Assembly: GCA_934167485.1 (NCBI GenBank)
Contig: CAKPKL010000007.1
Span: 12,186-76,185, forward strand
DNA: 64,000 nt
Origin: an uncultured Bacilli bacterium
Lineage (GTDB): Bacteria > Bacillota_I > Bacilli_A > RF39 > UBA660
Direction of reading: 5' to 3'
A program made the translations under genes and the position numbers. Each line of letters opens with the position of its first letter. The stretch's first letter is position 1. Below, one piece after another: positions 15,313 through 48,237 of this stretch. Under the pieces are notes generated by a model. That model made no database searches, had not been told where the DNA came from, and saw nothing but the letters and a program-made list of their open reading frames with translations.

Positions 15313-15316
15313 ATTT

Positions 15317-15335
15317 TAGGTGGCAATTAGGTGGC
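15317..15335 (+). repeat. Arm-type direct repeat pair TAGGTGGC / TAGGTGGC (11-nt register), right end of E2
   Basis: Read directly from the sequence. Confidence 0.55.
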
Positions 15336-15450
15336 AAAATTTTAAATTTTAACAGTAAAATTCAGTTTTTATTATTTTAAAATAGTAAAAAATATAAGTA
15401 AATAAAGGAAATAATAACTTTAAAGTATAAAATAAACTAAATCTTAATTG

Positions 15451-15492
15451 CCCCCTGAAGAGAGCGATTAACTTATGTCGCTCTCATTTTTT
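15451..15492 (+). repeat. Junction repeat C: CCCCCTGAAG, hairpin GAGAGCGA..TCGCTCTC, ATTTTTT
   Basis: Aligned by eye with repeats A, B and D. Confidence 0.7.
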
Positions 15493-15542
15493 GTAGGAAA
15501 TATAAGGGTTTTATCAGTTTGATAATTCTCTAAAAATAGGAT

Positions 15543-15561
15543 TAGGTACCAATTAGGTACC
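15543..15561 (+). repeat. Arm-type direct repeat pair TAGGTACC / TAGGTACC, left end of E3
   Basis: Read directly from the sequence. Nearly identical to 3559-3577, including the trailing ATTTT. Confidence 0.6.
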
Positions 15562-15643
15562 ATTTTCATTTAAAAACATTTTTTATAATATAAATAATTA
15601 GAAAATCTGTAGTATAATGGAATAGACATATAGGAGGTTTATT

Positions 15644-16297
15644 ATGGTTTGTGATTATAAAGAAATTGTTGATGCGATAAATAAAACAAATAATTTTTCA
15701 ATAGGAGACTTTATTAATTCATTGTTATTAGTGTGTTCAATAATAACTATTATATTTTTATTAATTGATAAATATTCAAAAGGTCGTCCTTATTTACAAG
15801 TTTCTATAGAACTGATAAGATCAAGTTTAGCTTGTGTAGTTATAAGAAATGTTGGAGAGGTATCATTGTCGTTGAAAAAGATAACTTTTGATAAAGAATT
15901 TATAGAACAATTGCCAGATTATGCTCAAAAATATTTTAAAGATACTAAAATAAATAATCTATTACTTCATCCAGGATCAAAATGGGTTATGTGCTTCGGT
16001 ACATCAATAAATGATATTTTAAAAAATTATGATAAAAAAGCTGTGCTTATAAAGTATGAATATACAAAATTAAATAGAAAAAAGGTATATAGAGAGGAAT
16101 ATTTAGCAGATTTTGAACAAATATCACATTTTCTTGTTTATATCAGTGAAATAGATGAATTATCTAATGAAGTTGAAAAAAGTACAAATAAGTTATCAAA
16201 AAAACTTACAGAAATTGAAAAAGAAGTTATTAGTTTTAGAAATTTAAATGAAGATTACTTTAGAAATACAATAACACTAAAGAGCAAGAAAAAATAG
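15644..16297 (+). CDS. Hypothetical membrane-anchored protein (217 aa)
   Basis: RBS aggagg. One N-terminal TM helix (LLLVCSIITIIFLLI). The gene lies between the att junction and the integrase. Confidence 0.65.
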   Translation: MVCDYKEIVDAINKTNNFSIGDFINSLLLVCSIITIIFLLIDKYSKGRPYLQVSIELIRSSLACVVIRNVGEVSLSLKKITFDKEFIEQLPDYAQKYFKDTKINNLLLHPGSKWVMCFGTSINDILKNYDKKAVLIKYEYTKLNRKKVYREEYLADFEQISHFLVYISEIDELSNEVEKSTNKLSKKLTEIEKEVISFRNLNEDYFRNTITLKSKKK

Positions 16298-16321
16298 TTA
16301 GGAGCAAACCTAACTTTTTTA
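16296..16321. terminator. Bidirectional terminator AGTTAGG-agcaaa-CCTAACT followed by a T-run, between convergent genes
   Basis: Read directly from the sequence. Confidence 0.6.
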
Positions 16322-17335
16322 TTCTAATTTATCAATTAAATCAACAACTTCATTTAAAGCAGAGTTAAATAGATGTGTATAAGTGTTTAAAGTTTCTTCT
16401 ATTTTAGTATGACCTAAATATTTGGCCACTACAGTTATATTAGCTCCATTATTAACAAGTAGTGATGCACATGAGTGTCGGAAGTCATGGATCCTAATTT
16501 GAGGTACACCAGCTAATTTACAGTTGCGATTTTTTCTTGATGTGATAGTATTACTTGCAACAGGGAAAGCATCACCAATAACAAAGTAATCATCATTGAA
16601 TCCATACTCTTTAGATACCTCATTTTTGAGCATTTTAAGGTTGTTTAAGAGAACTTTATTAAGCGGTAGGGTTCTTATACTACTTTTAGTCTTTGGAGTG
16701 GAGAATTGGAACTCTTTAACCGAACCACCACGATCTGTAATTTGCTTTTTAACAGATAGGGTTTTATTAACAAGATCAACATTTCTCCAAGTCAATCCTC
16801 TAAGTTCACCTTTCCTTAATCCACAGTAATATAATATTTCAAACATAACTTTACTTTGCAAATTATTTTCAACAGAAATAAATTGTTTCCATTGATCATA
16901 AGTAAAATACATCATTTCTTTTGGTATATCAAAAGCACTACTAAACTTAGTCATTTTATTATAAACTTTATTAAGATTAAAATCGTACCATGTCATAGCA
17001 AAGTTTAGTCCTGATTTTAAGAATTTTAATATATCATTTTTATATCGTGTTGAGATATTAGTTTCATTCATTTGCTTTTTCCAATTATCATAGTGATTAA
17101 TATTAAAATCTTTTAGTTTAATATTTAATAAACTTTTTAAATGGATTCTTTTATTACCATAATTATATAGAGTAGTAGGCTTAACCTCAATGGTAGAAGT
17201 TCTATTTTCGATAAATATATCAATCATTTCATCCAATGTTATTTTATCCATATTCTCATGTCTATGTATTTTTAACCTAAATTCAAGCTCTGCATCTTCA
17301 GCTTCTTTTTTTGTGCAATAAAAAAGCATTAACAA
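16319..17335 (-). CDS. Tyrosine recombinase / phage-type integrase lacking most of the N-terminal arm-binding region
   Basis: Catalytic residues are present: LRKGELRGLTW (R), HDFRHSCAS (HxxR), GHTKIEETLNTYTH (H, Y). The ORF starts at ...FYCTKKEAEDAE, which normally lies ~40-50 aa into such integrases. Confidence 0.85.
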   Translation of the reverse strand: MLMLFYCTKKEAEDAELEFRLKIHRHENMDKITLDEMIDIFIENRTSTIEVKPTTLYNYGNKRIHLKSLLNIKLKDFNINHYDNWKKQMNETNISTRYKNDILKFLKSGLNFAMTWYDFNLNKVYNKMTKFSSAFDIPKEMMYFTYDQWKQFISVENNLQSKVMFEILYYCGLRKGELRGLTWRNVDLVNKTLSVKKQITDRGGSVKEFQFSTPKTKSSIRTLPLNKVLLNNLKMLKNEVSKEYGFNDDYFVIGDAFPVASNTITSRKNRNCKLAGVPQIRIHDFRHSCASLLVNNGANITVVAKYLGHTKIEETLNTYTHLFNSALNEVVDLIDKLE

Positions 17336-17338
17336 ATA

Positions 17339-17668
17339 CTAATACTTAATTATTTTAAAATCTAAAGGATCTTCATTGATTATTTCTAAAGAGTATTTTA
17401 TCTTAAGTAATTTAATAACTTCAGCTTTAGCTTTTTTATAATTTTTACACACCAGATTAAAAGTATCAAAAGCAGAATTAAAGTGTTGCTTAAAAGTTGC
17501 TTCCCACATAGCATTTCTATAAAAAGAACTAGCAATATAAAATGCTATAACTTCAGGAATAACATATTCTTCTAAATAACTATCATAGTTTTCATAAAAT
17601 GGGTCAATAACCTTTTCACACTCTTCATCACTTATATCTTCATCAGTACATTTTCTTAACATAGACAC
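17339..17668 (-). CDS. Hypothetical acidic protein (109 aa)
   Basis: ORF with RBS ggaggtg. It ends in a TAG 3 codons before the integrase ORF, in the same frame. Confidence 0.5.
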   Translation of the reverse strand: MSMLRKCTDEDISDEECEKVIDPFYENYDSYLEEYVIPEVIAFYIASSFYRNAMWEATFKQHFNSAFDTFNLVCKNYKKAKAEVIKLLKIKYSLEIINEDPLDFKIIKY

Positions 17669-17832
17669 CTCCGTATGTATTAATCACTTAAAAAACGTTT
17701 TTTTACAATAGTTTTAATTCAAAAATTGAAAATTACATTGTTATTATGCGCAAAACATCATAATTTGTCGAAAAAATGTGATATAATTGATATTGAATAT
17801 GTGGAGTATAATGGGAAGTAAGAGGTAGAAGT

Positions 17833-19788
17833 ATGGATAATAATGTAAGAGCTGAATTAATAAAAATATTAGCAAGTGGAAATAGTATTCCAGAAACATA
17901 TAAAGATATTATTTTTCCAACTATAAATAAGGAATATGAATTATCTTATGCAGGAAAAATGAGAGCCGAAGATGTATTATCTTGCAATGATGGTGTTTAT
18001 TCTATGCCACTGCAAATTGAAAAATCATTTAAAACAGATGAATCAGAGTGGAATAACATAATATGTTTTGGGGACAATTTACAATTGTTAAAAACAATTA
18101 ATGAGAATGTTGATCCAATCATAAAAGACAAAGTAAAAGGTAAAGTAAAATTAATATATATAGATCCACCATTTGCAACTGAAGATGAGTTTAAAAATAA
18201 AGATGGTGCTAAGGCATATAATGATAAAGTAAAGGGTGCTGATTTTATTGAATTTATGCGTAGAAGATTAATTCTAGCAAAAGAAATATTAGCGGATGAT
18301 GGTTCAATATTTGTTCATTTGGATATGAAAATGAGTAATTATATAAAAATAATATTAGATGAGGTTTTTGGTAAAAATAACCTATTAAATGAGATTATTT
18401 GGCATTTTAGAACATATCAAGGGCAAACAGACAAGTATTATCCAAGAAAGCATAATGTTATATATTGGTATAAAAAGAAAAATAATCCTACTTTTAAATT
18501 AGATTATGATGATGATTATGAAGATACTGTTGATGCTGAAAGATGGAGAAAATATGTTGTTAATGGTAATGAAATACGTGGTAATAAATTTCCAAAATCT
18601 GATTCTAGATTTAAGGGATATTATGATAGATTTGTTAAAGAACACGGAAGAAAGCCAAATAAAGATGACATAATAATGAAAATAAATGGATATGTTGTAG
18701 ATGATGTTTGGGTTGACATAAATGCGGTAGACCCTAAAGACAAAATTGAAAAAACAGGATATCCGACTCAAAAACCTGAACAATTGTTAAGAAGAATAAT
18801 TGAAACAACTACAGAAAAGGGAGATTTGATATTTGATTTCTTTGGGGGATCTGGTACAACTTCAGCTGTTGCTGAAAAATTAGGAAGACGATGGATAACG
18901 TGCGATTTAGGAAAGTTATCATATTATACAATCCAAAAAAGAATTATAAATATAGGAAATTCAAAAGACTTGTTTGATCCAACAAAAAAATATAATAAAA
19001 ATCCAAGTAATTTTATAACTTGTCAATTAGGATTGTATGATTTAAATTCAGTAATTAATCTTCCATGGGAACAATATGTGGAATTTGTTTCTGATTTGTT
19101 TGAAATTAAGTTAAAAAAGAATAAGGTAAATGGAATCGAATTTGATGGAACAAAAAATTTAGAACCAACTTTAATATGGGATTTTAATAAGTATAAAGAT
19201 GTTATAATTGATGAAAATTATATTAATAACTTAAATCTTAATTTAGCAAATAAGTATGAAGGTAATATTTATATAGTAGCTCCAGCAAATTGTTTTGATT
19301 TCATTGAGGATTACTATGAAATTAATAATAATAGATACTACTTTTTGAAAATACCTTATCAGATTATAAGAGAATTGCATAAAGTGCCTTTCAAAAAGAT
19401 ATTACAGCCTAATAGTAAAAATAATGTTAATAGTATTGATGAATCTATTGGTTTTCATTTCATTAAGCAACCTACTGTTAAGAGTAAAGTTACTAAAAAG
19501 GACAATGAATTATTAATTTCACTTAAAGAGTTTAAGAGTTATTATTATAAGGATGAAGACGGAAAAATATTAAAAAATTTTGAAACACTATCTGCAATGT
19601 TTGTAGATTATGATTATCATGAACCATTTATTATTGACGATGTTTTTTTTGCAGATGAATTTAAAAAAGAATCTGACAATCTCGTAATAAAAGTTAACAC
19701 CAAAAAAATTGGCAAAAAAATAATGCTAATTTATGTTGATATTTATGGTAATGAATTTAAAGAAATTATTCAGTTAGGTGGTAAATAA
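17833..19788 (+). CDS. mod: Type III R-M DNA methyltransferase (Mod), beta-class N6A/N4C
   Basis: Motif IV LIYIDPPF lies before motif I FDFFGGSGTTSAVAEKLGRRWI. The length (651 aa) and the adjacent res gene fit. Confidence 0.85.
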   Translation: MDNNVRAELIKILASGNSIPETYKDIIFPTINKEYELSYAGKMRAEDVLSCNDGVYSMPLQIEKSFKTDESEWNNIICFGDNLQLLKTINENVDPIIKDKVKGKVKLIYIDPPFATEDEFKNKDGAKAYNDKVKGADFIEFMRRRLILAKEILADDGSIFVHLDMKMSNYIKIILDEVFGKNNLLNEIIWHFRTYQGQTDKYYPRKHNVIYWYKKKNNPTFKLDYDDDYEDTVDAERWRKYVVNGNEIRGNKFPKSDSRFKGYYDRFVKEHGRKPNKDDIIMKINGYVVDDVWVDINAVDPKDKIEKTGYPTQKPEQLLRRIIETTTEKGDLIFDFFGGSGTTSAVAEKLGRRWITCDLGKLSYYTIQKRIINIGNSKDLFDPTKKYNKNPSNFITCQLGLYDLNSVINLPWEQYVEFVSDLFEIKLKKNKVNGIEFDGTKNLEPTLIWDFNKYKDVIIDENYINNLNLNLANKYEGNIYIVAPANCFDFIEDYYEINNNRYYFLKIPYQIIRELHKVPFKKILQPNSKNNVNSIDESIGFHFIKQPTVKSKVTKKDNELLISLKEFKSYYYKDEDGKILKNFETLSAMFVDYDYHEPFIIDDVFFADEFKKESDNLVIKVNTKKIGKKIMLIYVDIYGNEFKEIIQLGGK

Positions 19789-19789
19789 A

Positions 19790-22375
19790 ATGAATAACGA
19801 TGCAAATTTAATATTTAATTTAGATGATTTAATTTTAAAGGTTAATCATTATTACGATACATCAAAATATAATTTAGAAGTTTGGGAAAACTATTTGAAC
19901 ATATTAACAGAAGGAAGAACATATCAAAAGGAAGCTATTTTATCGGCTATTTATTACTTAATAGATGCAAATGTTCCAGATTTGAAGACTCTTGCATATA
20001 ATAATTTTAATCAAAATCAATATTTAAAAAGCAAATATAATAATAACTTCTATGAGTTTGAATCTAATCTACAACTTCCTAGCAAAAAATATGCTACCAT
20101 TGATTTGGCAACAGGAACAGGTAAGTCATACGTTCTGTATGGTATCTCTCAAATACTTTTAGGAATAGGTTTTGTGGAAAGAGTTTTATTATTATGCCCA
20201 TCAACAACAATAGAATATGAGTTAACAAAGAAATTCAAAGAATTAAGTCAAAATAATGTGTTGTCTGATTTAATACCAGAGGAAGCTATTATAAAAACAC
20301 CAAGAATAGTAGATGCTAATGTTTCTGTAAAATTAGGAGATATATGTATTGAAAACATTCATTCGGTATACGAAAACACAGGGTCTTCTATTGATGATAG
20401 TTTTACAGGTACAGGAATAAATACTCTTGTATTAAATGATGAAGCACACCATATATTTAATAATGTTAGTTATTCAGGTAGAAATGAAACAAGTGAATTA
20501 AAGAAATGGAAAGAGTTTTTGTTAAACGACAAATACAACTTTCAATATGTGATTGGAACTACTGGAACGGCATATATTGAAAATGAGTATTTTTGTGATG
20601 TTATATATAGATATTCATTAAACAAAGCAATAGAAGATAGGATTGTAAAAAACATTAATTATGTATTGAAGGACGATGAAATAAGTGAAAATGAAAAATT
20701 CACTAAAATATATCAAAATCATAGTGATTATAAAAAATTGTATTCTAAAATAAAGCCTATAACTATTTTTGTAACAAAAGATAAACAAAATTGTAATAGT
20801 GTTACAAATAAATTGAAAGATTATTTGAAAAAGTTTGAAAACATTACAGATGAAGAAGCTGATAAAAAAGTATTAATAGTTACATCAGCTCCTGAACACA
20901 AAAATAATGTAGCAATACTAAGAAGTGTTGATAATAGTGATAATGATGTTGAATGGATAGTATCTGTATCGATGTTAACAGAAGGCTGGGATGTAAAAAA
21001 TGTATTTCAAATTGTTCCATGGGAAGATCGTGCTTTCAATTCTAAATTATTAATTTCACAAGTTTTAGGAAGAGGTTTAAGAATTCCTAAAGAATACCAA
21101 ACTCCACAACCAGTTGTAACAATATTCAATCATGCGTCATGGACTAAAAATATCAGAAGTTTTGTTGACCAAATATTAGAGATATCAGATAGAATAACTT
21201 CAAATATAATTATAGAAGGAAAAAGAGCTAAATATAATTTTGATTTATATAATATCAATTATGAGAAGGCACTTATAGAAAAAGAACATAAAAAGAATAA
21301 AACCTTTGATTATAGCAGAATGCAAAAAGAAGGAATAAAACTTGAATCTCAGGTATTGAAATATAACAAAGTTGTTGAATTCACAGACGTTTTAGAAAAC
21401 AAAATTATTGAAAAACAATTTGAAATCAACGAAGAAACTTATACGGTTGATGAGGTTGTTGACAAGATATATGATGAGTTTCAACTGAGAGAATGGGAAG
21501 GCATTACTTTAAAACTTGGTTTAGAGAAATATACAAAAAATAATTTACCGCCTAGAGATGAGATTAAGAAAATTGTTTTAAATTCAATGAAAAAAGTTGG
21601 AATAGATGGAAAACTTTTAACAATAAAAAACAGAAATTCAATATTAAAAGCATTTAATACTCTTTTAAGACAAAATGGTAAAACTGTAGAATATATTAAT
21701 ATTGAGAAAGATTTAGAAATTGTTAAAACTAATGTAATGGCTTCTCAAAGTACAAATATTCTTAATTTAAAAAGAGGAGAAACAACAATTTTTCATACAA
21801 ATGAGTGGAAACAAGAAGTTGATAATAAAAACTTAATTGTTTTTGAAAAGGTACTTGATGATGGAACAATGCCACGACAATCTACGCATGAGGTAAATAT
21901 CAATAATTTCAAAACTCCTGTTGATTTAGTAATTGTAAATGGATCTCCAGAGAGAAAATTTGTATCACAACTAATTGAAAATAATAATGCTAACATTATT
22001 GACTCGTGGATTAAATCTAGAGATAAGAATTTTTATTCAATTGATTATACTTGGAGAAAAAACGGGCATCAAATGTCAAATTCAGCATTCAATCCTGATT
22101 TTTTCATAAAACTAACTGAAGATGGTATTGATACTATTGTTGTAGTTGAAATTAAGGATGATGGTGATGATAGTGATGAAAATAAGGCTAAGTATAGATA
22201 TGCTTTAGATCACTTTGAAAATTTAAATGAAAAGTTAGAAAATAGTGGTATAAATCAAAAATACATTTTTCACTTCTTAAGTCCAATATCATATAATGCA
22301 TTTTTTGAATACTTAGGAAACCATAAAATAGAACAATTTAAATGTGATTTAGAAAACTTATTAGAAGAAAATTAG
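19790..22375 (+). CDS. res: Type III restriction enzyme Res subunit (helicase plus C-terminal PD-ExK nuclease)
   Basis: DLATGTGKS (motif I), LNDEAHH (DEAH), TEGWDV, and the C-terminal NPDFFIKL...VVVEIKDD. The ATG at 19790 follows the mod stop by 1 nt, with RBS aggtgg. Confidence 0.85.
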   Translation: MNNDANLIFNLDDLILKVNHYYDTSKYNLEVWENYLNILTEGRTYQKEAILSAIYYLIDANVPDLKTLAYNNFNQNQYLKSKYNNNFYEFESNLQLPSKKYATIDLATGTGKSYVLYGISQILLGIGFVERVLLLCPSTTIEYELTKKFKELSQNNVLSDLIPEEAIIKTPRIVDANVSVKLGDICIENIHSVYENTGSSIDDSFTGTGINTLVLNDEAHHIFNNVSYSGRNETSELKKWKEFLLNDKYNFQYVIGTTGTAYIENEYFCDVIYRYSLNKAIEDRIVKNINYVLKDDEISENEKFTKIYQNHSDYKKLYSKIKPITIFVTKDKQNCNSVTNKLKDYLKKFENITDEEADKKVLIVTSAPEHKNNVAILRSVDNSDNDVEWIVSVSMLTEGWDVKNVFQIVPWEDRAFNSKLLISQVLGRGLRIPKEYQTPQPVVTIFNHASWTKNIRSFVDQILEISDRITSNIIIEGKRAKYNFDLYNINYEKALIEKEHKKNKTFDYSRMQKEGIKLESQVLKYNKVVEFTDVLENKIIEKQFEINEETYTVDEVVDKIYDEFQLREWEGITLKLGLEKYTKNNLPPRDEIKKIVLNSMKKVGIDGKLLTIKNRNSILKAFNTLLRQNGKTVEYINIEKDLEIVKTNVMASQSTNILNLKRGETTIFHTNEWKQEVDNKNLIVFEKVLDDGTMPRQSTHEVNINNFKTPVDLVIVNGSPERKFVSQLIENNNANIIDSWIKSRDKNFYSIDYTWRKNGHQMSNSAFNPDFFIKLTEDGIDTIVVVEIKDDGDDSDENKAKYRYALDHFENLNEKLENSGINQKYIFHFLSPISYNAFFEYLGNHKIEQFKCDLENLLEEN

Positions 22376-23127: not shown

Positions 23128-23679
23128 GTGAATTATAGTTTTAAAATTTTTCAAAAAAATGCTGTAATAAGATTTTTAGCATTAGATAAGTATAATTATA
23201 TAATGGAAAATATTTATAAATGCGATATAAGTAAAGATGGTGAATTTCAAAAGGTATTTAATGCATTTTATCGTGTAAGAAGAGATGAAAAATGGCGAAA
23301 AGTATTTTATACTTACTTTGAATCAATTAAAGATAAAAAGAATATAACATTTGAAGAAATAGTTAGTTACATGTACAAGAAAACAGGAAATATTGAAGCA
23401 TCTTTTTGTAGTAAACTTTTATCTACACTAAATCCTAATATGCCAATCTGGGATCAATATGTATTAGCTAATTTAGATTTGGATGTAAAAGAGAAAACAA
23501 AAGTAGAAAAATTAAAAGATACTATAGCAGTTTATAATAAAATAATTGAAATAGAAAATAACAAACTTAAACAAAAAGATATCCAGCAAGCTATAAAAGA
23601 TTTTAAAGAACACTTTCCTGAATATAATTTATCAGATATAAAAATATTGGATTATATACTATGGAATAGTAGAAATTAA
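23128..23679 (+). CDS. Hypothetical protein (183 aa, GTG start)
   Basis: ORF only. No motif recognised. Confidence 0.5.
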   Translation: MNYSFKIFQKNAVIRFLALDKYNYIMENIYKCDISKDGEFQKVFNAFYRVRRDEKWRKVFYTYFESIKDKKNITFEEIVSYMYKKTGNIEASFCSKLLSTLNPNMPIWDQYVLANLDLDVKEKTKVEKLKDTIAVYNKIIEIENNKLKQKDIQQAIKDFKEHFPEYNLSDIKILDYILWNSRN

Positions 23680-23835
23680 GAACTAAAAATGAATATAGAT
23701 GCCAAGTTTGGTGTTATATATTAATTTAAAAACACACTAATAAATACCATTTTATTAAGGTAAAAACAAAAATATAACGGCTCTAAAAGGTCGTTTTTAA
23801 AAGAAATTAACATACAAAACATTTGTTTGTTTGAT

Positions 23836-23877
23836 CCCCCTAAAGAGAACGTAGTGATATATTCTCATTTTGTTTAT
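23836..23877 (+). repeat. Junction repeat D (rightmost, probably the displaced ancestral copy): CCCCCTAAAG, hairpin GAGAA..TTCTC, ATTTTGTTTAT
   Basis: Aligned by eye with repeats A to C. Confidence 0.6.
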
Positions 23878-24185
23878 ATTAAAGGGTTTCATATTTGTTA
23901 AGTAATTTTAGTTACACAAGTGTTAAATAAATTTTATATTACCATTAACCAATAATTTTGAAATAGAAAAATATTTTATTAATCCCAAATTTAAAATAAT
24001 AAATGTATTAATAGTTTTTATAATATTTTATGTGAAATGTTTGTGAATTTTAGCACTCATCGCTTGACTTTGCCAATCTAAAGTGGTAACATTATATACG
24101 TAAGGTTGAGATACTTACAGGTATTAAATTTATATGTATGTGCTACCTTAGGGTGTCAACACATAAAGAAAGGAAGTAGATTTGT

Positions 24186-24602
24186 ATGATGCTAGTACCT
24201 AAGAGTAATTTTGATTTGTTTGATGATATTTTTGGAGATCCATTCTTTATTAAAAATGAGAATAAGGTAATGAAGACTGATATTAGAGAAAGAGATAATA
24301 GTTATATTATTGATGTTGATTTACCAGGATTCAATAAAGATGATATTAAGATCGATGTAACTGATGGATATCTAACTATAAATGCAAAAATGAGTTCTGA
24401 AGACAAAGAAGAAAAAAATGAAAAATATGTAAGAAGGGAAAGATATTTTGGTGAATGTTCTCGTAGTTTCTATGTAGGTGAGAATGTTGAATCAGAAAAT
24501 ATTAAAGCTTCGTTTAAAAACGGTATTTTAAGTTTGGAAATTCCAAAAGTTGATGAAAAAGAAAAATTACCTGAAAAGAAATATATTGAAATTAGTGAAT
24601 AA
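24186..24602 (+). CDS. Small heat-shock protein, Hsp20/alpha-crystallin family
   Basis: Alpha-crystallin domain pattern DIRERDNSYIIDVDLPGFNKDDIKIDV...GILSLEIPK. Confidence 0.9.
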   Translation: MMLVPKSNFDLFDDIFGDPFFIKNENKVMKTDIRERDNSYIIDVDLPGFNKDDIKIDVTDGYLTINAKMSSEDKEEKNEKYVRRERYFGECSRSFYVGENVESENIKASFKNGILSLEIPKVDEKEKLPEKKYIEISE

Positions 24603-24633
24603 AAGGATAAAGATGGGCTTTATCCTTTTTTTT
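24603..24633 (+). terminator. Intrinsic terminator of hsp20 (AAGGATAAAG-atggg-CTTTATCCTT followed by T8)
   Basis: Read directly from the sequence. Confidence 0.8.
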
Positions 24634-24634
24634 G

Positions 24635-24663
24635 TTGACAATATTTGGGTTTTGGTGTAGAAT
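24635..24663 (+). promoter_or_regulatory. Sigma-A-type promoter TTGACA, 17 nt, TAGAAT, driving the 24691-30343 operon
   Basis: Hexamers and spacing read directly from the sequence. Confidence 0.6.
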
Positions 24664-24690
24664 ATCTTGAGGTTTTAGGGGGATAAAATA

Positions 24691-27600
24691 ATGTTGATAA
24701 CTAGTAAAAATATATTAAGAATATTAGAAGATGATTCTATACCACTTTCTGAGAAAGATGATATTGTAGAAAAAAATAAATATGTTTTAGAACACTCATT
24801 TAATAAGTTAACCAATGAACAAATAATTAACTATCTTTTAAATTCTAAAATACCAAAAAGTGCTAAAAGAGTACTATCAAATAATATTGATTCATTAAAA
24901 GAAAAATCAAAAAATAAAAGAAGATTATTTATAAAAAAATTATTTGAAGATAGTATTAATTTTTGGACTCTTAATTATTACGATAAAAAAGATAAAAAGA
25001 ATCTTATAAGATTAGATAACATCAAAAAAGAATTTGTAAAACAAAATAAAGTAAGAGAAAGCGACTTATATCATGATTACATTCCAAAATCAATTAAAGA
25101 AATTATAATAAGCGACATTTATAAAGGTGATTTAAATAAATTAATTTGTGAGTCTACTTTACCTATTAAATTAAAAAAAGAAATAATAGATATTGTATAC
25201 GATGATAACAATTGTGTTGATTTATTGACTGATTTAAAAAATGATGATCTTAAAAATTATATTCTTCATACTAAATTTAACAGTATAAATGGTATAGCAT
25301 TCGCTATAGCTTCTCTTAGATTAGATGATGAATGTAAAAAGTATATTGCTAAAAATAGGATAAATGTATATAACATATATGAAATAGCTATACAATTTTC
25401 ATATATTACTCAATATAAACAGTTTATAATTGAAAATTGTTATCCTATTCTTCAAGAATGTATAAAGAAAATACCTAGAAGAAAACTTTTTAGGAAATTA
25501 TATGATTCTCGTAATAGGGATTTTATGTCTGATTTGATTGTGGAGCAAAGAGAAGAAGATATAAATAAACAGATGAAAAAAATTATATTTCCATTTTCAT
25601 TTAATGAAAAGGTACTTAGTAGTCAAAATGAAAAATTAATTAAACTTGCAATAAAAAAACATCCATACAAACTTATTTTAACAATTTTATTTTCAAATGG
25701 GGAAGAGACATTGGAATGGCTAAACATTGATAGTATATCAAATGAATTTAAGAATTTTATTGTAAAAATAAGTTCTCCAAAAATAAATAGGACTATAAAA
25801 AAAATTAAATCTAATTATATAATTTATAAATTTATGACAAAAGATAGTAGTTTACCAAAGCAACTTCAAGATAGAATTTTAAATATACGTAAAAATTCAA
25901 TAGTGCAGCAAATAGATAAATTAGATGATCGAAATGTAGCCCATTTATTGTCTGATAATTTATTTATAGATTCAATAAGGGATTTAATAATAAAACTTAA
26001 AATTAATGAAAATAATATAATAGACATTTTATCAAATATTGAAGATGAAAATGTAATGTGTAATATTATTGAAGAAAAAAATGATATAATAAAAAAAATA
26101 TTAAATAGTTTAGATAATGACCAATTATTTAAATTAAATAAGATATATAATGGTAAATTAAAAAATAATATAATTTTTAGTAATGAGACTTATTTTATTT
26201 CTAGATTAAAGCAAGTTGATGAAGTAACTCTATATAATAAGTTAGATGATTTAAAAACCGATATGATGATTAAGTATGTTATTCTAAAAATTATGGGTAT
26301 GGAAGAAGCAGATATAATTGATTGCTTAATGCTTATTAATATTATTGATAGTAGAACGGTTATTTATAATTATAAAGTGATAAAAGAATTTATTGAAAAT
26401 TGTAATGTAAGCTTTTCAGCATTTGTACAATATGGATCTGGAACTGAAAAACATAGAGAATGGTTATCAAAAATTTTAAATATAATAAATGATGATAAAT
26501 CAAAAGACTTTATTAAAGTAAAAGAATATATGTTTAATAATTTTTATGGCGATGACAAATATAAAGAAAATATGGTATCTACAATATCTAATTTTTTAGA
26601 ACTTTTAGATAATTTTTCAGACAATTATGATGTACTTATTTCATTAGTTTCTAATAATAGAAAACTAATTCCAAAAGATAGATTAAATTTGCAATTTATA
26701 TTTAATAATAAACTCTCTTGTGAAAATATAGATCAAATATCTGATATGAGAATAAATTTATATGAAAAATATAAAAAAATAATTAATGATCCAAATTCTA
26801 GTTTAAATAGTCTAAAACAAGTATGTCATGAATTGATTTTTAAACAAGCTGTAGATACATTGAGTAGTATAGGCGGAGTTAGGACTTTAGTTATGTTAAA
26901 AAATGAATATAACGAATCTAGCGATATTTGCAAGTTAATAGATGAATTAATAGTTTATTCAAAAATAATAGAGAAATTAAGTACTACGAAAGATGAAATA
27001 GGACTTAGAAATTCATTGAAATATATATTTGGTAATGATTATAATGATTTGATGAGATATGAAAATATTTTTTCACAATTTGATAAAAAAGTTTTAAAAT
27101 TATTTGAACTTGATTCAAAATATAATTTGACACACATAGAAGACGCACGCAAAATTGATGGTACACTTGATTTAAAATTATGTTCTAAATATGGTGGCGA
27201 AGTTTTTGATTTTTCTGATAAAAATTATTGTTTGTATGCACATGTATTAAGTTTTGAGGAAAAAGTAGAAAATTTATTAAGAGGAAAATCTGATGGTTAT
27301 AGTAATTTTATATCAGTAAGTCCTATAAGTTATTTAGGACAAAAATATTACTATGACTATTCTAATATGATTTTAGCGTTTGATAATATTCCAAGAGGTA
27401 GTTTTATATGTAGTTCTGTTTCTAATATGGGAAGTAACAGTGACATAAAACATAATTCTTTTGAAGTTAGAAATGTATGTAGAACTCAAAGGGGAATATT
27501 AGAAACGAGTGCGGTTACAAAAAATAATTCAGAAGCACTATTATATAGAGAGGGGTTAAAACCTTGTGGAATTATCCTAATTAATGGAAAAATTCCGACA

Positions 27601-28653
27601 GAGAAAGAACTTTTATATCATAAAAAATATAATTTACCATTTATAATAACACAACCTAAGATGAAACCAATTGATAATCCTAGTATGGTTTTTAAACCTA
27701 ATATAGAAGAATTTGATAATGAACTATATACAAATGATTTAAATAAAATTTTAAATATATTAGATTCTAATGTGAAAATAAATAAAGAAAATGATATATA
27801 TACAGGAAGGGAAGTAGCTCTTATTACAGATTGTCATTCTATGTATGAACCAACAATAGAAGTATTGGAAGATACAAGAAAAAGAGGTATATCAGAGATA
27901 TATTCTTTAGGTGACAATGTTGGTCTTGGTCCAAACCCTGAAGAAGTATTTGATATGCTTGAAGAATATGGTGTTAAAACAATTTCAGGAAATAGTGAAT
28001 ATTATAATACTCTTGGTATAGAGCCTTTTGATTATTTTGATAATCAAAAGATAGAAAATCAAGAATGGACTTACAATAAACTTGGTACATATAGAATAAA
28101 TAAAATGAAATTGTATCAACCATCTTTAGATATATGTGTGGGAAATAAAAAGATAGCGCTTTGTCATTTTGCTAATGATATTAGGTGGGATTATCCAGTA
28201 CATAGCACTTGGTCATATCAAGGAAATTATAAATATGGAACTGCTTCACAACAATTTTTATATACAAATAGTGATGAAGCTTTAAGAAAAATAGATAATT
28301 GTATTACAAGTCATAAAAAAACAGATAAATTTATAAAAGGATATTTATCAGCAAAACAAGAACCATTATTTAATGGTAAATTAGTAACAGATTATGATGC
28401 AGTATTTCAAGGACATGTACATTTTGATATGAAGGATAAATTAAATAATACCGATATATATACATTAAGAGCTGTTGGAATGGGGTATGAGGAAGATCCT
28501 AAAAATACTGCATGTTATTATATTTTAAAAGAGAAGAAAGATGGTACATTTGATGTAGAAAAGAAATTGATAAAATTTAATAAAAATTTATTACTATCAA
28601 ATGTAAAATCAAGTGGAATACCACATAAAGAAAAAATATTAAATTTTTTATAA
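24691..28653 (+). CDS. Giant protein (1320 aa): ~1000 aa of helical repeats plus a C-terminal calcineurin-like metallophosphoesterase domain
   Basis: The full MPE motif set is present: ITDCHS (D-x-H), LGDNVGLG (GDxxG), SGNSEYY (GN-x-E), LCHF, QGHVHFD (GHxH). I recognise no motif in the N-terminal region. Confidence 0.8.
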   Translation: MLITSKNILRILEDDSIPLSEKDDIVEKNKYVLEHSFNKLTNEQIINYLLNSKIPKSAKRVLSNNIDSLKEKSKNKRRLFIKKLFEDSINFWTLNYYDKKDKKNLIRLDNIKKEFVKQNKVRESDLYHDYIPKSIKEIIISDIYKGDLNKLICESTLPIKLKKEIIDIVYDDNNCVDLLTDLKNDDLKNYILHTKFNSINGIAFAIASLRLDDECKKYIAKNRINVYNIYEIAIQFSYITQYKQFIIENCYPILQECIKKIPRRKLFRKLYDSRNRDFMSDLIVEQREEDINKQMKKIIFPFSFNEKVLSSQNEKLIKLAIKKHPYKLILTILFSNGEETLEWLNIDSISNEFKNFIVKISSPKINRTIKKIKSNYIIYKFMTKDSSLPKQLQDRILNIRKNSIVQQIDKLDDRNVAHLLSDNLFIDSIRDLIIKLKINENNIIDILSNIEDENVMCNIIEEKNDIIKKILNSLDNDQLFKLNKIYNGKLKNNIIFSNETYFISRLKQVDEVTLYNKLDDLKTDMMIKYVILKIMGMEEADIIDCLMLINIIDSRTVIYNYKVIKEFIENCNVSFSAFVQYGSGTEKHREWLSKILNIINDDKSKDFIKVKEYMFNNFYGDDKYKENMVSTISNFLELLDNFSDNYDVLISLVSNNRKLIPKDRLNLQFIFNNKLSCENIDQISDMRINLYEKYKKIINDPNSSLNSLKQVCHELIFKQAVDTLSSIGGVRTLVMLKNEYNESSDICKLIDELIVYSKIIEKLSTTKDEIGLRNSLKYIFGNDYNDLMRYENIFSQFDKKVLKLFELDSKYNLTHIEDARKIDGTLDLKLCSKYGGEVFDFSDKNYCLYAHVLSFEEKVENLLRGKSDGYSNFISVSPISYLGQKYYYDYSNMILAFDNIPRGSFICSSVSNMGSNSDIKHNSFEVRNVCRTQRGILETSAVTKNNSEALLYREGLKPCGIILINGKIPTEKELLYHKKYNLPFIITQPKMKPIDNPSMVFKPNIEEFDNELYTNDLNKILNILDSNVKINKENDIYTGREVALITDCHSMYEPTIEVLEDTRKRGISEIYSLGDNVGLGPNPEEVFDMLEEYGVKTISGNSEYYNTLGIEPFDYFDNQKIENQEWTYNKLGTYRINKMKLYQPSLDICVGNKKIALCHFANDIRWDYPVHSTWSYQGNYKYGTASQQFLYTNSDEALRKIDNCITSHKKTDKFIKGYLSAKQEPLFNGKLVTDYDAVFQGHVHFDMKDKLNNTDIYTLRAVGMGYEEDPKNTACYYILKEKKDGTFDVEKKLIKFNKNLLLSNVKSSGIPHKEKILNFL

Positions 28654-28663
28654 GAGGAGATTT

Positions 28664-30343
28664 ATGAATAAAATAGATAATATAATGTATTATTTTGATG
28701 GAAATTTTGCTTTTGCTTTATTTATATCAGATTTTCTTTATAATGAAGAAAAAAATTCATATTATATATGTAAAAAAGAATATATAAATGCAGCAAAGGT
28801 TGGTTGTATTAGTAATATTCTTTTAGCTATTAAAGAAGATTTAATTGAAAAAAAAGAAAATGTAAATTATGAGTCAAGAATATTTTTAGATGAATTAGAA
28901 AGTTCAGTAGAAATTTTAGCTACTAAAACAAAAAATGGTTACTCCATAAACAATTATGAATTTAGTGATGCTCCAAGTCTAGTAGCTTTTCTTAGGAATA
29001 AAATCGCACATGGAGATTTTACACTAGATTTATCACATACAAGAATAATAATAAATAGTGATGGGAAAGAGATTATTATAAATATAAATAAGCTTAGTTC
29101 ATTTATTAATCACGCAGCTATAAATTATTCTAGAAGAATACAAAAAAAAGAGTATACAAGAAGTTTTTTTATAACAGAGAAACAGGATAAAAAAAGAACA
29201 AAACCTATAACAAGTAAGGATGAATTAAAAAAATTTATAAAGACTTATTATGAAATTAGATTTGATCTTAAAAGAATTGATGGAAAAGATGTAGAAAAGT
29301 ATATAGCTAATGAATTTGAATATGTAATAAATAGTTTTAAAAAAGATTTAGATTTAAAAAAATTAATGAATTTTAAAAATAAGATAAAAAGTGAATATTA
29401 CTTTGATTGGAAAAGAATAAAAGTTGATAGTAAAAAATTAGATGCTGCATCAGAAAGCATTATAAATATAATTCCAACAGACATTAATTATAAGATTCAA
29501 GTTTATTCTATATCGCAAGAGTTAATAGGATGGTTAAATCCTCTTTATCAAAAATATAATTCAATTTTAGCAAGTTCAAATAATTTATTATTATTAGATG
29601 CAATTTATAAAATAGGTACTTATAACAAAAAAGAATTATTAGGATATATTGTTACAAATCATGGTAATTTATATTTTAATCAAGACTATATGGCCAGTAC
29701 ATCTATTAGTTTATTTAATGCATTATTTTCATATCCCTTTGACGATATATATAAAAATACACATGAGTTTACAAATGAGAACAATACTGGGTTAGATTAT
29801 TCCTTATTAGATTTGAGATATATGAAAGTAGAAAAACATACAATTGAAACCCCTATAAAAAATGAACTTATAACAAGTAAATTAGCAAAACAAAAAGAAT
29901 TGCAAAAATTGAAAGAAAAGTATGAAGAATTATCTATTAGTCTAAAAAATGTAAAAGATAAAAATAATTCAAATGCAATCAAAAAAATAAATAAATTAAT
30001 ATATAATATAGATAAGTGTATTGATGAAAAAATAAATGAAATAAAATCTATAGATAAAAGGCTATTTGAGGTATTAGAATATATAAATAACAATAAAAAT
30101 TATTTAAAGAATAAAGCTATTATAGAGGGTATTAGAAATTCTATCGCACATGGAAATTATAGAGTAGAATTAGACGGAAATATGGAAAATTCTAAAATGA
30201 TTTTTGAAGATATATATAATAATGAACTTACATTTAAGGGTACAATATCAATTCAAAAGTTTTTACAAATGATAATTTATAATTGTACATTTATAAATGA
30301 TTTTATAAAACAAAAACAAAAAATATCTTTTAAAGTTAAGTAG
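28664..30343 (+). CDS. Tandem HEPN-like protein (559 aa) with two RNxxAHG motifs
   Basis: LRNKIAHGDF (R111/H116, nt 28994-29011) and IRNSIAHGNY (R491/H496, nt 30134-30151). Both fit the HEPN Rx4-6H signature. A helical/coiled-coil spacer lies between them. RBS gaggag. Confidence 0.7.
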   Translation: MNKIDNIMYYFDGNFAFALFISDFLYNEEKNSYYICKKEYINAAKVGCISNILLAIKEDLIEKKENVNYESRIFLDELESSVEILATKTKNGYSINNYEFSDAPSLVAFLRNKIAHGDFTLDLSHTRIIINSDGKEIIININKLSSFINHAAINYSRRIQKKEYTRSFFITEKQDKKRTKPITSKDELKKFIKTYYEIRFDLKRIDGKDVEKYIANEFEYVINSFKKDLDLKKLMNFKNKIKSEYYFDWKRIKVDSKKLDAASESIINIIPTDINYKIQVYSISQELIGWLNPLYQKYNSILASSNNLLLLDAIYKIGTYNKKELLGYIVTNHGNLYFNQDYMASTSISLFNALFSYPFDDIYKNTHEFTNENNTGLDYSLLDLRYMKVEKHTIETPIKNELITSKLAKQKELQKLKEKYEELSISLKNVKDKNNSNAIKKINKLIYNIDKCIDEKINEIKSIDKRLFEVLEYINNNKNYLKNKAIIEGIRNSIAHGNYRVELDGNMENSKMIFEDIYNNELTFKGTISIQKFLQMIIYNCTFINDFIKQKQKISFKVK

Positions 30344-30392
30344 AATTAATTGAATAAAAGTGTTATACTATAAATAGTAATGAGGTGAAGTT

Positions 30393-31499
30393 ATGAAGAA
30401 AGTTGTAATAGGCATGAGTGGCGGAGTAGATTCATCTGTAGCAGCTATAAAATTAAAAGAGCAAGGATATGAAGTAATAGGACTTTTTATGCGTAATTGG
30501 GATTCTTTTACAGATGGTGAGTATGAAGGTGCCCCTGTATCAAGTAAAGGAATTTGTCCACAAGAGGTTGATTATAACGACGCTAAAGCTGTATGTGATA
30601 AAATTGGTATTCCACTTTATAGAAAAGATTTTATAAAAGAATATTGGGATTATGTTTTTACATACTTTCTTGATGAACTAAAAAAAGGTAGGACACCTAA
30701 TCCAGATATAATGTGTAATAAATATATAAAATTTGATATGTTTGCTAAAGAAGCACAAAAATTAGGAGCAGATTATATTGCTACAGGACATTATGCAAGA
30801 ATAGAAAATGGAAAATTATTAAAAGCAGTTGATGAAAACAAAGACCAAACTTATTTTTTATCTCAGGTAAGTCGTGAACAATTAAAAAATGTATTATTTC
30901 CAATAGGCGATATGTTAAAACCTGATGTAAGAAAAATAGCAGAAAAATATGATTTAATAACGGCAGAAAAAAAAGATTCAACTGGTATTTGTTTTATAGG
31001 AGAGAGAAATTTTAATAATTTTTTAAAAAATTATTTACCTAATACTCCAGGTGATGTCGTAAACATTGATACAAATGAAGTAATAGGTAAACATATAGGA
31101 CTTATGTATTATACTATAGGGCAAAGAAGAGGTCTTGATATAGGTGGTACAAAAGATAGAATGTTTGTAGTAGGAAAAGATTTAGAAAAAAATATTTTAT
31201 ATATTTGTATTGGTGATGATAATGATTATTTAATATCAGATTCTTGTATAATTGAAGATATAAATTATTTGGAAAAAGAAAAAATAACAAAATGTAATGC
31301 TAAGTTTAGATATAGACAAAAGGATATACCAGTAGAATTAGAATGGTTAGATAATAATCAAATATTAGTTAAGTATCCACAAGGTGTTAAAAGAGTAACA
31401 CCAGGACAAGCTTGTGTGCTTTATGATGGTGTAGAGTGCCTTGGTGGAGGTATTATTAAAGAAGTAAGAAAAAATGGCAAAAAACTTTGGTATTTATAA
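30393..31499 (+). CDS. mnmA: tRNA-specific 2-thiouridylase MnmA
   Basis: PP-loop GMSGGVDSS and conserved blocks (NPDIMCN, ATGHYAR, DQTYFL). Confidence 0.92.
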
Positions 31500-34698: not shown

Positions 34699-36041
34699 AT
34701 GAAAAAAGGATTTACATTAATAGAACTTTTAGCGGTTATAGTAATACTTGCAATCATCGCACTTATAGCCACACCAATAGTATTAGATATAATAGACAGT
34801 AGCAAAAAAATAGCAATATCAGAAGTGCTGAAATATATATGGATGCAGTAAAAACAACTTTAACTAAAAACCAATTAGATGGTAAGATATTGAATGATGG
34901 TTTTTATAGTATAAGTGAGGTAGATATTAAATTAAATGGAGATAAACCTAGTATGGGTTATTTTGAAATTAGAAATGGCAATGTAGAAAGATATAATGTA
35001 ACAATAAATAATCAGGAAATTGATAGTGAACAGTATGATGTTTGGAATGGTATAGAAAAATCTATACTTGAAGATAATAACTCATATTATATAAACACAT
35101 CTAGTGAATTAGCCTGGATATCTAATGAAGTAAATAATGGCAATAAATTTGAAGGAAAGATTATTTATTTGAACAATAATTTAGATTTAAATAATAAAGA
35201 ATGGACACCAATAGGAAATAGTGATAATAAATTTTTAGGTACATTTGAAGGTAACAATCATATTATTAAAAATCTTTATATAAATGATGAAAATCAAACT
35301 AAAACGAAACAAGGCTTGTTTGGTGATTTTGATGGTACTTTAAATAATTTGATATTAATTAATGTTAAAATTACTTCGCAAAGAGTAATAGGTGCATTTG
35401 CAGGAGGTTCTAGAGAAAATGCTAAATTTAATAATTTATTACTCTATAATGCATATTTGAAAGGAAAAATTGATGATATGACTGATGCAAAATATGGATA
35501 TTCTATGGGAGGAATAGTAGGTCAGTTTTCATCTGATATATATAATTCTAAAGTAATTAATTTAGATATAGAAGGTTCATCATATTTAGGAGGATTAATT
35601 GGTAGAGGAGTTATAAGTGATAGTACAAAGAAACAACAGGTAGTAATAGATAACTGTGAAGTAATAGATTCCAAAATATATTCAAATGGTTCAATTGGAA
35701 ATCAATTTAATTTTTCGAGAACAGGTGGTTTAGTAGGCCAAGCAATGAATTCATTAATAACAAATTCTAGATCTTTTGCTACAATTAATTCAAAATATTC
35801 TACTGTAGGAGGGTTTATAGGTGAAAGCTATACTTCGATTGTAGAAAACAATTATTCAAATTCTAAAATAAGTTCAGAATCAGAAGATGATTTGGGTTAT
35901 TTTATTGGTTATGTTAAAGATACGCAAATAATAAATAATATTATAGATTCTAAAAGTACTATAAATAATGTAGAGACTTTAGAAGATAAATTAGTAGGTA
36001 CTAACATAGAAAGCACATTAGAAGGCAATTTGATAAAATAA
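34699..36041 (+). pseudogene. Prepilin-type N-terminal domain protein with GLUG-motif repeats, interrupted by a frameshift at an A7 tract (34804-34810)
   Basis: The ATG at 34699 encodes MKKGFTLIELLAVIVILAIIALIATPIVLDIIDSSKK, then stops at 34849-34851. One extra A would join it to the 34839-36041 frame, giving ...SKKNSNIRSAEIYMDAVKTT. That parallels DSKNSSIKRSIELYADAVENS in the paralog at 58543. GGLIG/GGLVG/GGFIG/GGIVG repeats follow. Confidence 0.75.
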
Positions 36042-40331: not shown

Positions 40332-40674
40332 GGGGCCGTCTAGTTTCGACGGGTATGTTTGAGCTTTAATTGCAAGTCGTAAGGTAATGCGATAAATTCC
40401 AAAAATAAATAACTGGAAACAGAAATCAATTAGCTTTCGCTTAATATAATTTAGAAGGCACTCTAATAAATTTTTTCCTATGAAATTTATATAGGGTTCG
40501 ATTAAGTAGGATATATTATTGTGATGTCTATAAGCAATAATGAATTTTATAGACTTATCTTAAAATTGTTTGTTGATTAACGTATTTTAAGAGAAATTTA
40601 GTAATCAACTAAACTTGTAGATGTTATTGTGTTAATGTATTCGGACATGGGTGCGATTCCCATCGGCTCCACCA
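40332..40674 (+). ncRNA. ssrA: tmRNA (SsrA)
   Basis: 5' GGGGCCGTCTAGTTTCGACGGG and 3' GGACATGGGTGCGATTCCCATCGGCTCCACCA. The internal tag reading frame ends ...AATCAATTAGCTTTCGCTTAA (..NQLAFA*). Confidence 0.9.
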
Positions 40675-44097: not shown

Positions 44098-44171
44098 TGG
44101 AGGGCCTAGTCGGATTTGAACCAACGATCAGGGAGTTGCAGTCCCATGCCTTACCACTTGGCTATAGACCC
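44098..44171 (-). tRNA. tRNA-Cys (GCA)
   Basis: The reverse complement is GGGTCTATAGCCAAGTGGTAAGGCATGGGACTGCAACTCCCTGATCGTTGGTTCAAATCCGACTAGGCCCTCCA. The acceptor stem pairs, the anticodon loop is CTGCAAC, and CCA is encoded. Confidence 0.9.
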
Positions 44172-48162: not shown

Positions 48163-48237
48163 GCAGGTGTAGTACAATGGTTAGTATATGGCCTTGCCAA
48201 GGCTAGGATGCCGGTTCGATCCCGGTCACTTGCTCCA
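48163..48237 (+). tRNA. tRNA-Gly (GCC)
   Basis: GCAGGTG...CACTTGC acceptor stem, anticodon loop TTGCCAA, T-arm GGTTCGATCCC, and CCA encoded. Confidence 0.9.

Follow-up and report, generated by a model that had tools for sequence, protein, structure and literature searches.

The pairing of two HEPN domains within a single chain is the defining trait of Cas13. Throughout the HEPN superfamily it takes two HEPN domains to make an active site (PMC3710099; PMC12165695), and guide-free endonucleolytic RNA processing by two cooperating HEPN units is described for Swt1, which holds a HEPN dyad in one chain, and for Las1, a HEPN homodimer (PMC3710099). For the compact Cas13an an origin by fusion of two HEPN genes has been proposed, with HEPN genes of defence systems as the source (PMC12165695), and relatives of pEK499_p136 are located among toxin-antitoxin, restriction-modification (R-M) and Pgl genes (PMC3710099). 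In this work we analyze a stretch of 64,000 nucleotides from an uncultured Bacilli bacterium (contig CAKPKL010000007.1, positions 12,186 to 76,185 of the forward strand), hereafter referred to as the window, and in particular one of its genes, c0 (28664..30343, + strand), which encodes a protein of 559 aa with two HEPN-type Rx4H motifs.

We find that the two motifs belong to two HEPN-like modules, one at each end of the chain, which are conserved throughout a large family and resemble the pEK499_p136 kind of HEPN domain. The reading that we favor, with moderate confidence, is that c0 would be a guide-independent dual-HEPN RNase, an effector of conflict or stress that cleaves RNA when activated by a trigger, in the manner of abortive infection systems. 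What is new is an architectural variant in an unannotated family; the HEPN superfamily itself is known.

Two conserved Rx4H motifs in one polypeptide

The c0 gene was taken from the list of open reading frames (ORFs) and has an ATG start with a GAGGAG Shine-Dalgarno sequence 5 nt 5' of it, and its homologues are of like length. The stop of the upstream gene c2 lies 10 nt before the c0 start, and 49 nt separate c0 from mnmA. The G+C content of the window is ~24% throughout, and c0 has the same composition as its surroundings. The first Rx4H motif, RNKIAHG (residues 111–117, comprising R111, N112, H116, and G117), is encoded at 28994..29014, and the second, RNSIAHG (residues 491–497, comprising R491, N492, H496, and G497), at 30134..30154, both on the + strand. 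No other match to R[NDH]xx[AGSC]H, a loose form of the motif, occurs in the window ORFs of at least 100 aa in six frames (20,140 residues), and among 200,000 shuffles of the c0 protein two such motifs arose in a fraction of 5e-6. In both motifs the residue right after R is polar, as is expected of HEPN domains, where N, D, or H occupies this position. The proposal of the first-pass annotation that two HEPN-type motifs lie in one 559-aa chain is thus confirmed by the ORF, the motif scan, and the shuffles.

Both motifs are retained by the homologues. Among 120 diverse full-length sequences, extending down to ~20% identity, the first motif conserves R in 97%, N in 89%, H in 97%, and G in 96%, and the second conserves R in 99%, N in 93%, H in 98%, and G in 95%. 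Just 17 positions of c0 exceed 90% conservation, and R, H, and G of both motifs are included in this set together with K57 and E58. The K57-E58 pair, with which helix 2 of the N-terminal module ends, is 94% conserved and may correspond to the second conserved acidic residue looked for in HEPN helix 2; no counterpart of it was identified for the C-terminal module. Loss of the R and H residues in homologues, which the first-pass annotation had named as a result that would speak against HEPN modules, is not what we observe, R111, H116, R491, and H496 being kept in 97–99% of the 120 sequences. Judging from these alignments, strong purifying selection acts in both modules on those residues that characterized HEPN RNases use for catalysis. 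In two orthologues (L013 and L014) the first motif reads RNKLSYG, with H replaced by Y, and the second motif is intact; these may represent a natural half-inactivated variant.

The nucleotide string ATCGCACATGGA, which codes for I-A-H-G, is found exactly twice, at 29003 and 30143, and had been put forward as an argument for duplication of the module. Both motifs carry this 12-mer only in the window and in strain L001, which is 99% identical; in ~30 orthologues, synonymous differences separate the one motif from the other. The identical 12-mer is therefore ruled out as a relic of duplication and carries no evidence on that question. The Ile of both IAHG motifs is written with an ATC codon (29003-29005 and 30143-30145), a codon that makes up just 2% of the Ile codons in nine window genes; ATC also occurs at one of the two motif sites in several c0 orthologues.

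An ancient internal duplication

The case for a duplicated module comes from the comparison of the two ends of the protein. With BLASTP of c0 residues 1–200 against residues 381–559, positions 93–174 pair with 473–552 at 24% identity over 85 columns, and with hhalign on family profiles of 120 sequences, residues 105–166 align to 485–555 with 94% probability (E 1.2e-7). Neither end module gives any score against the middle region of c0 in hhalign. Since the profiles of the two modules match each other at this level, the origin of both by an ancient internal duplication is supported at the level of sequence, and this duplication is older than the radiation of the family. The suggestion that one module stands duplicated at both ends of c0 therefore holds through BLASTP, hhalign, and a common predicted layout, while the 12-mer offered in its favor does not.

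The layout of the modules was obtained from an AlphaFold2 model of full-length c0 built with 21 homologues, which has a predicted local distance difference test (pLDDT) score of 86 and a predicted template modeling (pTM) score of 0.83. A separate AlphaFold2 model of residues 1–170 (pLDDT 87.4) agrees with the full model in secondary structure. Both modules are predicted to consist of a helix terminated by the motif, a beta hairpin or sheet, and a further helix. The N-terminal HEPN-like module (residues 1–157; 28664..29134, + strand), delimited from the full and N-domain models and from hhalign, comprises the helices H1 (3–25), H2 (38–55, with the conserved K57-E58 at its end), H3 (103–115), and H4 (141–157), with an insert of short strands and a helix at 59–102 and a beta hairpin at 120–140. 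The core of the C-terminal HEPN-like module (residues 478–558; 30095..30337, + strand), delimited from the model and from hhalign to PF18736, comprises a helix at 478–495 that ends in the motif, a beta sheet at 499–529, and a helix at 530–558. In published descriptions the HEPN motif is located where core helix 3 ends and the loop to helix 4 begins, and a beta hairpin following the motif is known from Csx1 (PMC3710099). The c0 motifs, which are predicted to end the helices 103–115 and 478–495, match this placement, and the helix order of the modules in the predicted secondary structure is compatible with the HEPN four-helix up-down bundle.

Between the modules the model places a middle alpha/beta and helical domain of no recognizable family (residues ~160–392; 29141..29839, + strand) and an antiparallel coiled-coil hairpin (residues 397–433 and 436–476; 29852..30091, + strand). 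The separator had previously been described as a helical or coiled-coil region of ~370 aa; it is not uniform, and this description has to be replaced: the hairpin and last helix of the N-terminal module (~118–157) are followed by the mixed domain at ~160–392 and then by an 80-residue coiled-coil hairpin at 397–476. The two helices of this hairpin may serve the C-terminal HEPN-like module as its helices 1 and 2; the hairpin is also the sole part of c0 that draws PDB matches, all of which are coiled-coil noise. The middle domain has no match in Pfam, NCBIfam, PADLOC, or PHROGs. Mean-field direct coupling analysis of the juxtaposition of the two motifs (271 sequences, effective number 133) gave output dominated by hub artefacts.

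Relationship to the pEK499_p136 family

The comparison of profile hidden Markov models with HEPN families, which the first-pass annotation had called for, gives a match for the C-terminal module. Against PF18736 (pEK499_p136), hhalign returns 93.5–94.6% probability (E 7e-8 to 2e-7) over 41–57 columns that run from the motif helix through the hairpin, which includes the IxFxD strand, to the last helix, and the middle domain used as a control returns 0.1%. The pEK499_p136 alignment contains 98 members, and its type protein WP_000528932.1 from the E. coli plasmid pEK499 (166 aa), which NCBI names 'HEPN family nuclease', matches PF18736 at E 1e-49. For the N-terminal module, K57-E58 is placed on the PKE of PF18736 and RNKIAH on RNSVAH. 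In direct searches with PF18736, for which the gathering threshold is 26.6 bits, c0 has no match at E <= 1 and six homologues have none at E <= 0.1; weak or faint precomputed PF18736 matches exist for many c0 homologues. The sub-threshold matches of c0 to MauJ, RTasHEPN, and MepK cover just the coiled coil or the motif, and in PADLOC-DB 2.0 the sole match is one of 16 residues at the motif to RTasHEPN (E 0.013). With AbiD/F (Abi_2) the hhalign probability is below 5%, and the alignment is of motif on motif only, the Abi_2 profile being a shallow one (Neff, the effective number of sequences, 1.6) derived from a gene in L006.

Size and distribution of the family

The family is substantial. A word-indexed search gives more than 493 homologues, nearly all of 553–566 aa and unnamed, and a profile search of 1.84 billion representatives gives 332 clusters at 50% identity, almost all of 540–600 aa, with 142 scoring below E 1e-30. 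In a scan of one genome per species, the 28 c0 loci found all lie in metagenome-assembled genomes (MAGs) of uncultured gut bacteria labeled 'Bacilli', 'Tenericutes', or 'CAG', labels that we take to correspond to the RF39 group. The c0 family is thus unannotated, abundant, and confined to one lineage of uncultured human-gut Bacilli. The most divergent members lie on contigs of 2–4 kb, which are too short for gene context. Short members with only the N-terminal or only the C-terminal part are not accepted as stand-alone modules, at least one of them (P0260) being the contig-end fragment of a c0 gene. On the complete MAG chromosome CP091726.1 the c0 orthologue (L028:7986-9083) is divided into three short ORFs, and is either a pseudogene or the product of assembly frameshifts. 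We reject a phage origin of c0, as it has no relatives in IMG/VR.

The guide RNA question

The resemblance to Cas13 raises the question of a guide. The 64-kb window contains no CRISPR or tandem-repeat array and no cas genes, the first reading of the sequence having noted none nearby, and no Rfam family is matched around c0 even at E <= 1; at gathering scores, too, Rfam gives nothing in the window in support of a small-RNA locus. Two intergenic regions, 24603-24690 and 30344-30392, had been named as possible sources of an associated small RNA. The former turns out to hold the intrinsic terminator of hsp20 (24601..24629, + strand; a 12-bp stem and a T run), the sole terminator-like site in 23600-31000, and a sigma-70-type promoter (24635..24663, + strand; TTGACA-17-TAGAAT, 11/12 consensus matches) placed to drive c2 and c0; this promoter is one of the two best-scoring sites (11/12) in a scan of 7.4 kb. 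The latter is the 49-nt spacer ahead of mnmA. With a terminator and a promoter in the one region, no array, and no Rfam match, we reject the idea of a small-RNA locus. Because the neighbors of c0 are not conserved, there is no conserved adjacent non-coding locus either.

Searches of the PDB by sequence, with c0 through phmmer and with the 120-sequence profile through hmmsearch, return neither Cas13 nor another solved relative, only coiled-coil noise. Of the Cas13-like logic that had been read into c0, the part that stands is two HEPN-type modules in one chain; a similarity to Cas13 itself is found neither by sequence against the PDB nor among the 50 best Foldseek matches listed.

Gene neighborhood

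Neighboring ORFs were clustered for 37 loci together with the window segment, which gives ~30 distinct c0 loci that could be scored. The pair PFOR-recG lies upstream of c0 in six divergent loci, hsp20 adjoins c0 in eight, and a protein with an Amidoligase_2 domain is encoded downstream in seven. The window has recG as well (1375-3354), followed by ~25 kb before hsp20-c2-c0. Other neighbors are housekeeping genes, as with PBP2, radC, smc, murG, and murB in L004 and mnmA in the window. Divergence of c0 outpaces that of its neighbors in the same genomes, at 48% identity vs. 60% for RecG and 87% for Hsp20.

Tandem c0 paralogues occur in four loci, and the full-length second copies (L008, L015, L016) retain both motifs. 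Directly upstream of c0 in one orthologous locus is a retron reverse transcriptase (RT) gene (L010:6956-7924; PADLOC RT_Ec107-like, E 5e-125), and in L006 the c0 orthologue has an Abi_2 gene 7 kb upstream. In the window itself, the ~25 kb between recG and hsp20 contain a Schlafen/AlbA_2 protein gene (13849-15312; PADLOC PDC-S50), a tyrosine integrase gene on the minus strand (16319-17335), and the overlapping genes of a type III R-M pair (mod 17833-19788, res 19778-22375); 13849-22375 is likely an integrated defence island. The tandem paralogues in four loci, the retron RT, and the integrase, Schlafen/AlbA_2, and type III R-M genes of the window together make for a context of the conflict type.

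The gene directly upstream of c0 varies. In eight loci (L002:9287-9949, L003, L007, L008, L009, L011, L013, L014) it encodes a protein of 220–247 aa that, on our reading of its GxGxxG...AxK and D...N / D-x-G motifs, may be kinase-like; it has no match in Pfam, PADLOC, or PHROGs. In L004, a close relative of L010, an unrelated 343-aa HExxH protein takes the place of the retron RT. Neither the 220-aa nor the 343-aa upstream protein has BLAST similarity to c2, and both are ruled out as c2 homologues. Proteins of ~570 aa recur beside c0 (L002:11682-13400(-), and L015 and L016 with two copies each); they combine a repeat-like N-terminal sequence with a C-terminal Amidoligase_2 domain, an unusual architecture whose plan resembles that of c2.

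In the window the upstream gene is c2 (24691..28653, + strand), which is co-oriented with c0, encodes 1320 aa, and ends 10 nt before it. The c2 protein has an unannotated region (~1–830), a conserved unknown domain (~830–1010), and a calcineurin-like metallophosphoesterase region (~1040–1300), the last recognized by a sub-threshold match to Pfam Metallophos_2 and, with the family profile, by the PDB metallophosphoesterase 3rqz at E 8e-4. Its invariant columns cluster in ~830–1320; the region ~830–1010 (window 27180-27720) contains invariant stretches such as NYCLYAH and RGILETSAV and has no match in Pfam or the PDB. Comparison of the window with strain L001 gives 98.7% amino acid identity for c0, with a synonymous divergence (dS) of 0.02, and 100% for hsp20. 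In the same pair the phosphoesterase domain of c2 (L001:850-4812 for the second copy of the gene) is 97–100% identical (dS 0.06), and c2 residues 241–540 are 38–57% identical, with a dS of 0.71 and a ratio of nonsynonymous to synonymous divergence (dN/dS) of 0.55. The central region of c2 thus looks like a recombinational mosaic, as would arise by allelic replacement.

Association of c2 with c0 is partial in both directions. Within ~30 c0 loci, c2 lies no more than two genes away in 9, in two gene orders and including orthologues that are ~30% identical; conversely, c0 is present within 6 kb in ~21 of 80 c2 loci from metagenomes and missing from at least 17 whose 6-kb flanks are complete. These reciprocal counts rule out c2 as an obligatory partner of c0, and a partnership that is not obligatory is possible.

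Other features of the window include a transfer-messenger RNA gene (40332-40674; Rfam RF00023, 144 bits) and tRNA genes at 44101-44171 (minus) and 48163-48234 (plus). At 34699-36041 there is a gene for a protein with a prepilin-type N-terminal methylation motif (MKKGFTLIELL...), followed by one for a 400-aa protein, and a pilin-like (N_methyl) gene is also found upstream of a distant c0 homologue in L037.

Weighing the possible functions of c0

Because HEPN active sites take two HEPN domains (PMC3710099; PMC12165695), c0 is most likely a guide-independent endoribonuclease. A mechanism of the following kind seems reasonable. An ancient duplication would have left a pEK499_p136-like module at either end of the chain, with an alpha/beta domain and a coiled-coil hairpin in between. 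Together, the two Rx4H motifs (R111/N112/H116 and R491/N492/H496) would build one metal-independent endoribonuclease site, which needs two HEPN domains and could be formed either by a single chain that acts as a Cas13-like pseudo-dimer or by two chains arranged head-to-tail; no guide RNA would be needed. The middle domain and the coiled coil would be where activity is restrained or where the trigger or substrate is recognized, and c0 itself would be resident at a chromosomal spot where defence genes gather. We infer the RNase activity, the composite site, its regulation, and the role in defence. A role in conflict or stress is favored since c0 diverges fast, has tandem paralogues, lies in variable surroundings rich in defence genes, and has modules akin to pEK499_p136, with the genomic contexts that are described for that family.

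Several results weigh against this effector reading. The inheritance of c0 looks vertical and syntenic. No relatives of c0 are found among the 2.9 million viral contigs of IMG/VR and c0 is without a PADLOC model, both of which are atypical for a mobile defence gene, and across the scored loci no conserved partner gene, be it an antitoxin or a sensor, was found. The c0 protein has no match over threshold in Pfam, NCBIfam, PADLOC, or PHROGs, and the match of the N-terminal module to PF18736 residues 43–109, colinear as it is, is weak (hhalign 12%, E 2e-3). In Foldseek, the full model has nothing below E 0.4 in the PDB and BFVD, and the N-domain model likewise has nothing below E 0.4 in the PDB; for both models, no HEPN or Cas13 chain is among the 50 best PDB matches listed.

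The vertical, syntenic inheritance of c0 and its absence from mobile elements make a housekeeping RNase the main rival, if in our judgment an unlikely one. On this account c0 would be a vertically inherited core gene of a reduced-genome lineage, encoding a nuclease for RNA processing or RNA decay, as Las1 does for pre-rRNA. The steady position 3' of PFOR-recG(-hsp20) in divergent genomes fits such a role, as do the housekeeping nature of the other neighbors (the L004 set and mnmA), the single copy per locus in most genomes, the lack of viral copies, the uniform length and architecture over the 332 clusters, and a base composition like that of the surrounding genome. A core gene would, however, be less expected to diverge faster than the housekeeping genes beside it, to have tandem paralogues in four lineages, to have Y at the equivalent of H116 in L013 and L014, to be apparently broken in the complete MAG chromosome of L028 (where an assembly error is possible), or to lie in immediate surroundings that are variable and rich in defence genes, and we know of no housekeeping HEPN RNase in bacteria. 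The relation to c2 suggests another account, in which the two genes form one system, co-transcribed from the promoter at 24635, and c2 is a sensor, a regulator, or an RNA-end-processing partner of the c0 nuclease. The 10-nt gap, the shared strand, the one good promoter before c2, and the lack of a terminator between the genes are what one would expect, and so are the occurrence of c2 within two genes of c0 in 9 loci and in two gene orders, and the mosaic center of c2, should this be its specificity-determining part. It also speaks for a joint system that the 2',3'-cyclic phosphate ends left by HEPN cleavage can be processed by phosphoesterases of the calcineurin type, as is established for Pnkp. 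The counts nevertheless make it quite doubtful: at least 17 fully flanked c2 loci lack c0 and ~21 of 30 c0 loci lack c2, the upstream genes elsewhere are unrelated (the kinase-like 220-aa protein, the 343-aa HExxH protein, the retron RT, and others), and synteny shared within one lineage could explain the co-occurrence.

A more basic objection is that the modules may not be catalytic HEPN domains at all, the RNxxAHG-hairpin being a convergent or non-nuclease element that binds a ligand or nucleic acid in a protein with a structural or regulatory role. The lack of Foldseek matches to HEPN structures and of domain matches at curated thresholds is in line with this, and the HEPN assignment of pEK499_p136 itself comes from profile searches rather than from experiment (PMC3710099). 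We nonetheless consider it rather improbable, given that R, the N that follows it, and H, catalytic in characterized HEPN RNases, are near-invariant in both modules, that the placement of the motifs in the secondary structure agrees with the HEPN description, and that HEPN domains are structurally very diverse and often missed by fold searches (PMC12165695). Lastly, c0 could be an RNA-guided nuclease like Cas13 with an unrecognized guide RNA encoded nearby or in trans, as its single-chain dual-HEPN architecture and a size near that of the compact Cas13an would allow. This account is extremely improbable in view of the absence of a repeat array in 64 kb and of Rfam matches around c0 at E <= 1, spacers of just 10 and 49 nt, an upstream intergenic region that consists of a terminator and a promoter, orthologue neighborhoods (~30) that are protein-coding and variable, the lack of sequence or fold similarity to Cas13 in the PDB, and a HEPN type that is pEK499_p136-like.

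Significance and comparison with known systems

The favored effector reading leaves room for a broader proposal, which we regard as improbable: c0 could be an independent, non-CRISPR invention of a single-chain dual-HEPN nuclease, vertically fixed in a reduced-genome lineage of gut Bacilli, either as a housekeeping RNase or as a trigger-gated immune effector with interchangeable upstream partners. In that event a sensor-like domain and a coiled coil would lie between two fused units of the pEK499_p136 type, and the partners would be the mosaic metallophosphoesterase giant, the mini-kinase-like protein, or the retron. If this is true, a guide-less dual-HEPN family of another HEPN subtype, compact and well conserved, shows that the architecture evolved more than once, and the family offers a natural system in which to see how an intramolecular HEPN pair stays off and switches on without a CRISPR RNA. 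Should c0 instead be an ordinary stand-alone toxin, it adds one further architecture to the very diverse HEPN superfamily. In either case the family has a confidently predicted overall fold that is without a relative in the PDB or BFVD.

Among described HEPN systems, Csx1 and Csm6 combine one HEPN domain with a CARF sensor and work as homodimers that cyclic oligoadenylate activates; Pfam and PADLOC searches detected neither a CARF nor a SAVED domain in c0. AbiD/AbiF (Pfam Abi_2) share with c0 an RNxxAH motif and a firmicute setting, but have one HEPN domain where c0 has two modules and no Pfam Abi_2 match. The non-coding RNA family RF03085 is predicted to co-occur with AbiD/F (PMC12165695), and it has no Rfam match in the window. 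Swt1 and Las1 are like c0 in having two HEPN units and unlike it in being eukaryotic, in their other accessory domains (PIN in the one case, a Grc3 kinase partner in the other), and in showing no detected sequence similarity.

A relative at the profile level is pEK499_p136, in which, as in c0, a helix ends in the RNS[IV]AH motif and leads into a beta hairpin, one strand of which has the conserved [IV]xFxD pattern, before the last helix. The pEK499_p136 proteins are, however, single domains of ~160 aa that occur mostly in Proteobacteria, on plasmids and chromosomes, whereas c0 has 559 aa, two modules, an extra 230-aa domain, a coiled-coil hairpin, and a G after the H of its motifs. With Cas13, and especially the compact Cas13an, c0 shares two HEPN-type Rx4H motifs per polypeptide, and both probably arose by the joining of two related HEPN units (for Cas13: PMC12165695). 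Unlike Cas13, c0 has no CRISPR array, cas genes, or detectable guide RNA, and its HEPN subtype is a different one. What c0 has in common with Cas13 is its architecture alone, a resemblance that would be convergent and of independent origin.

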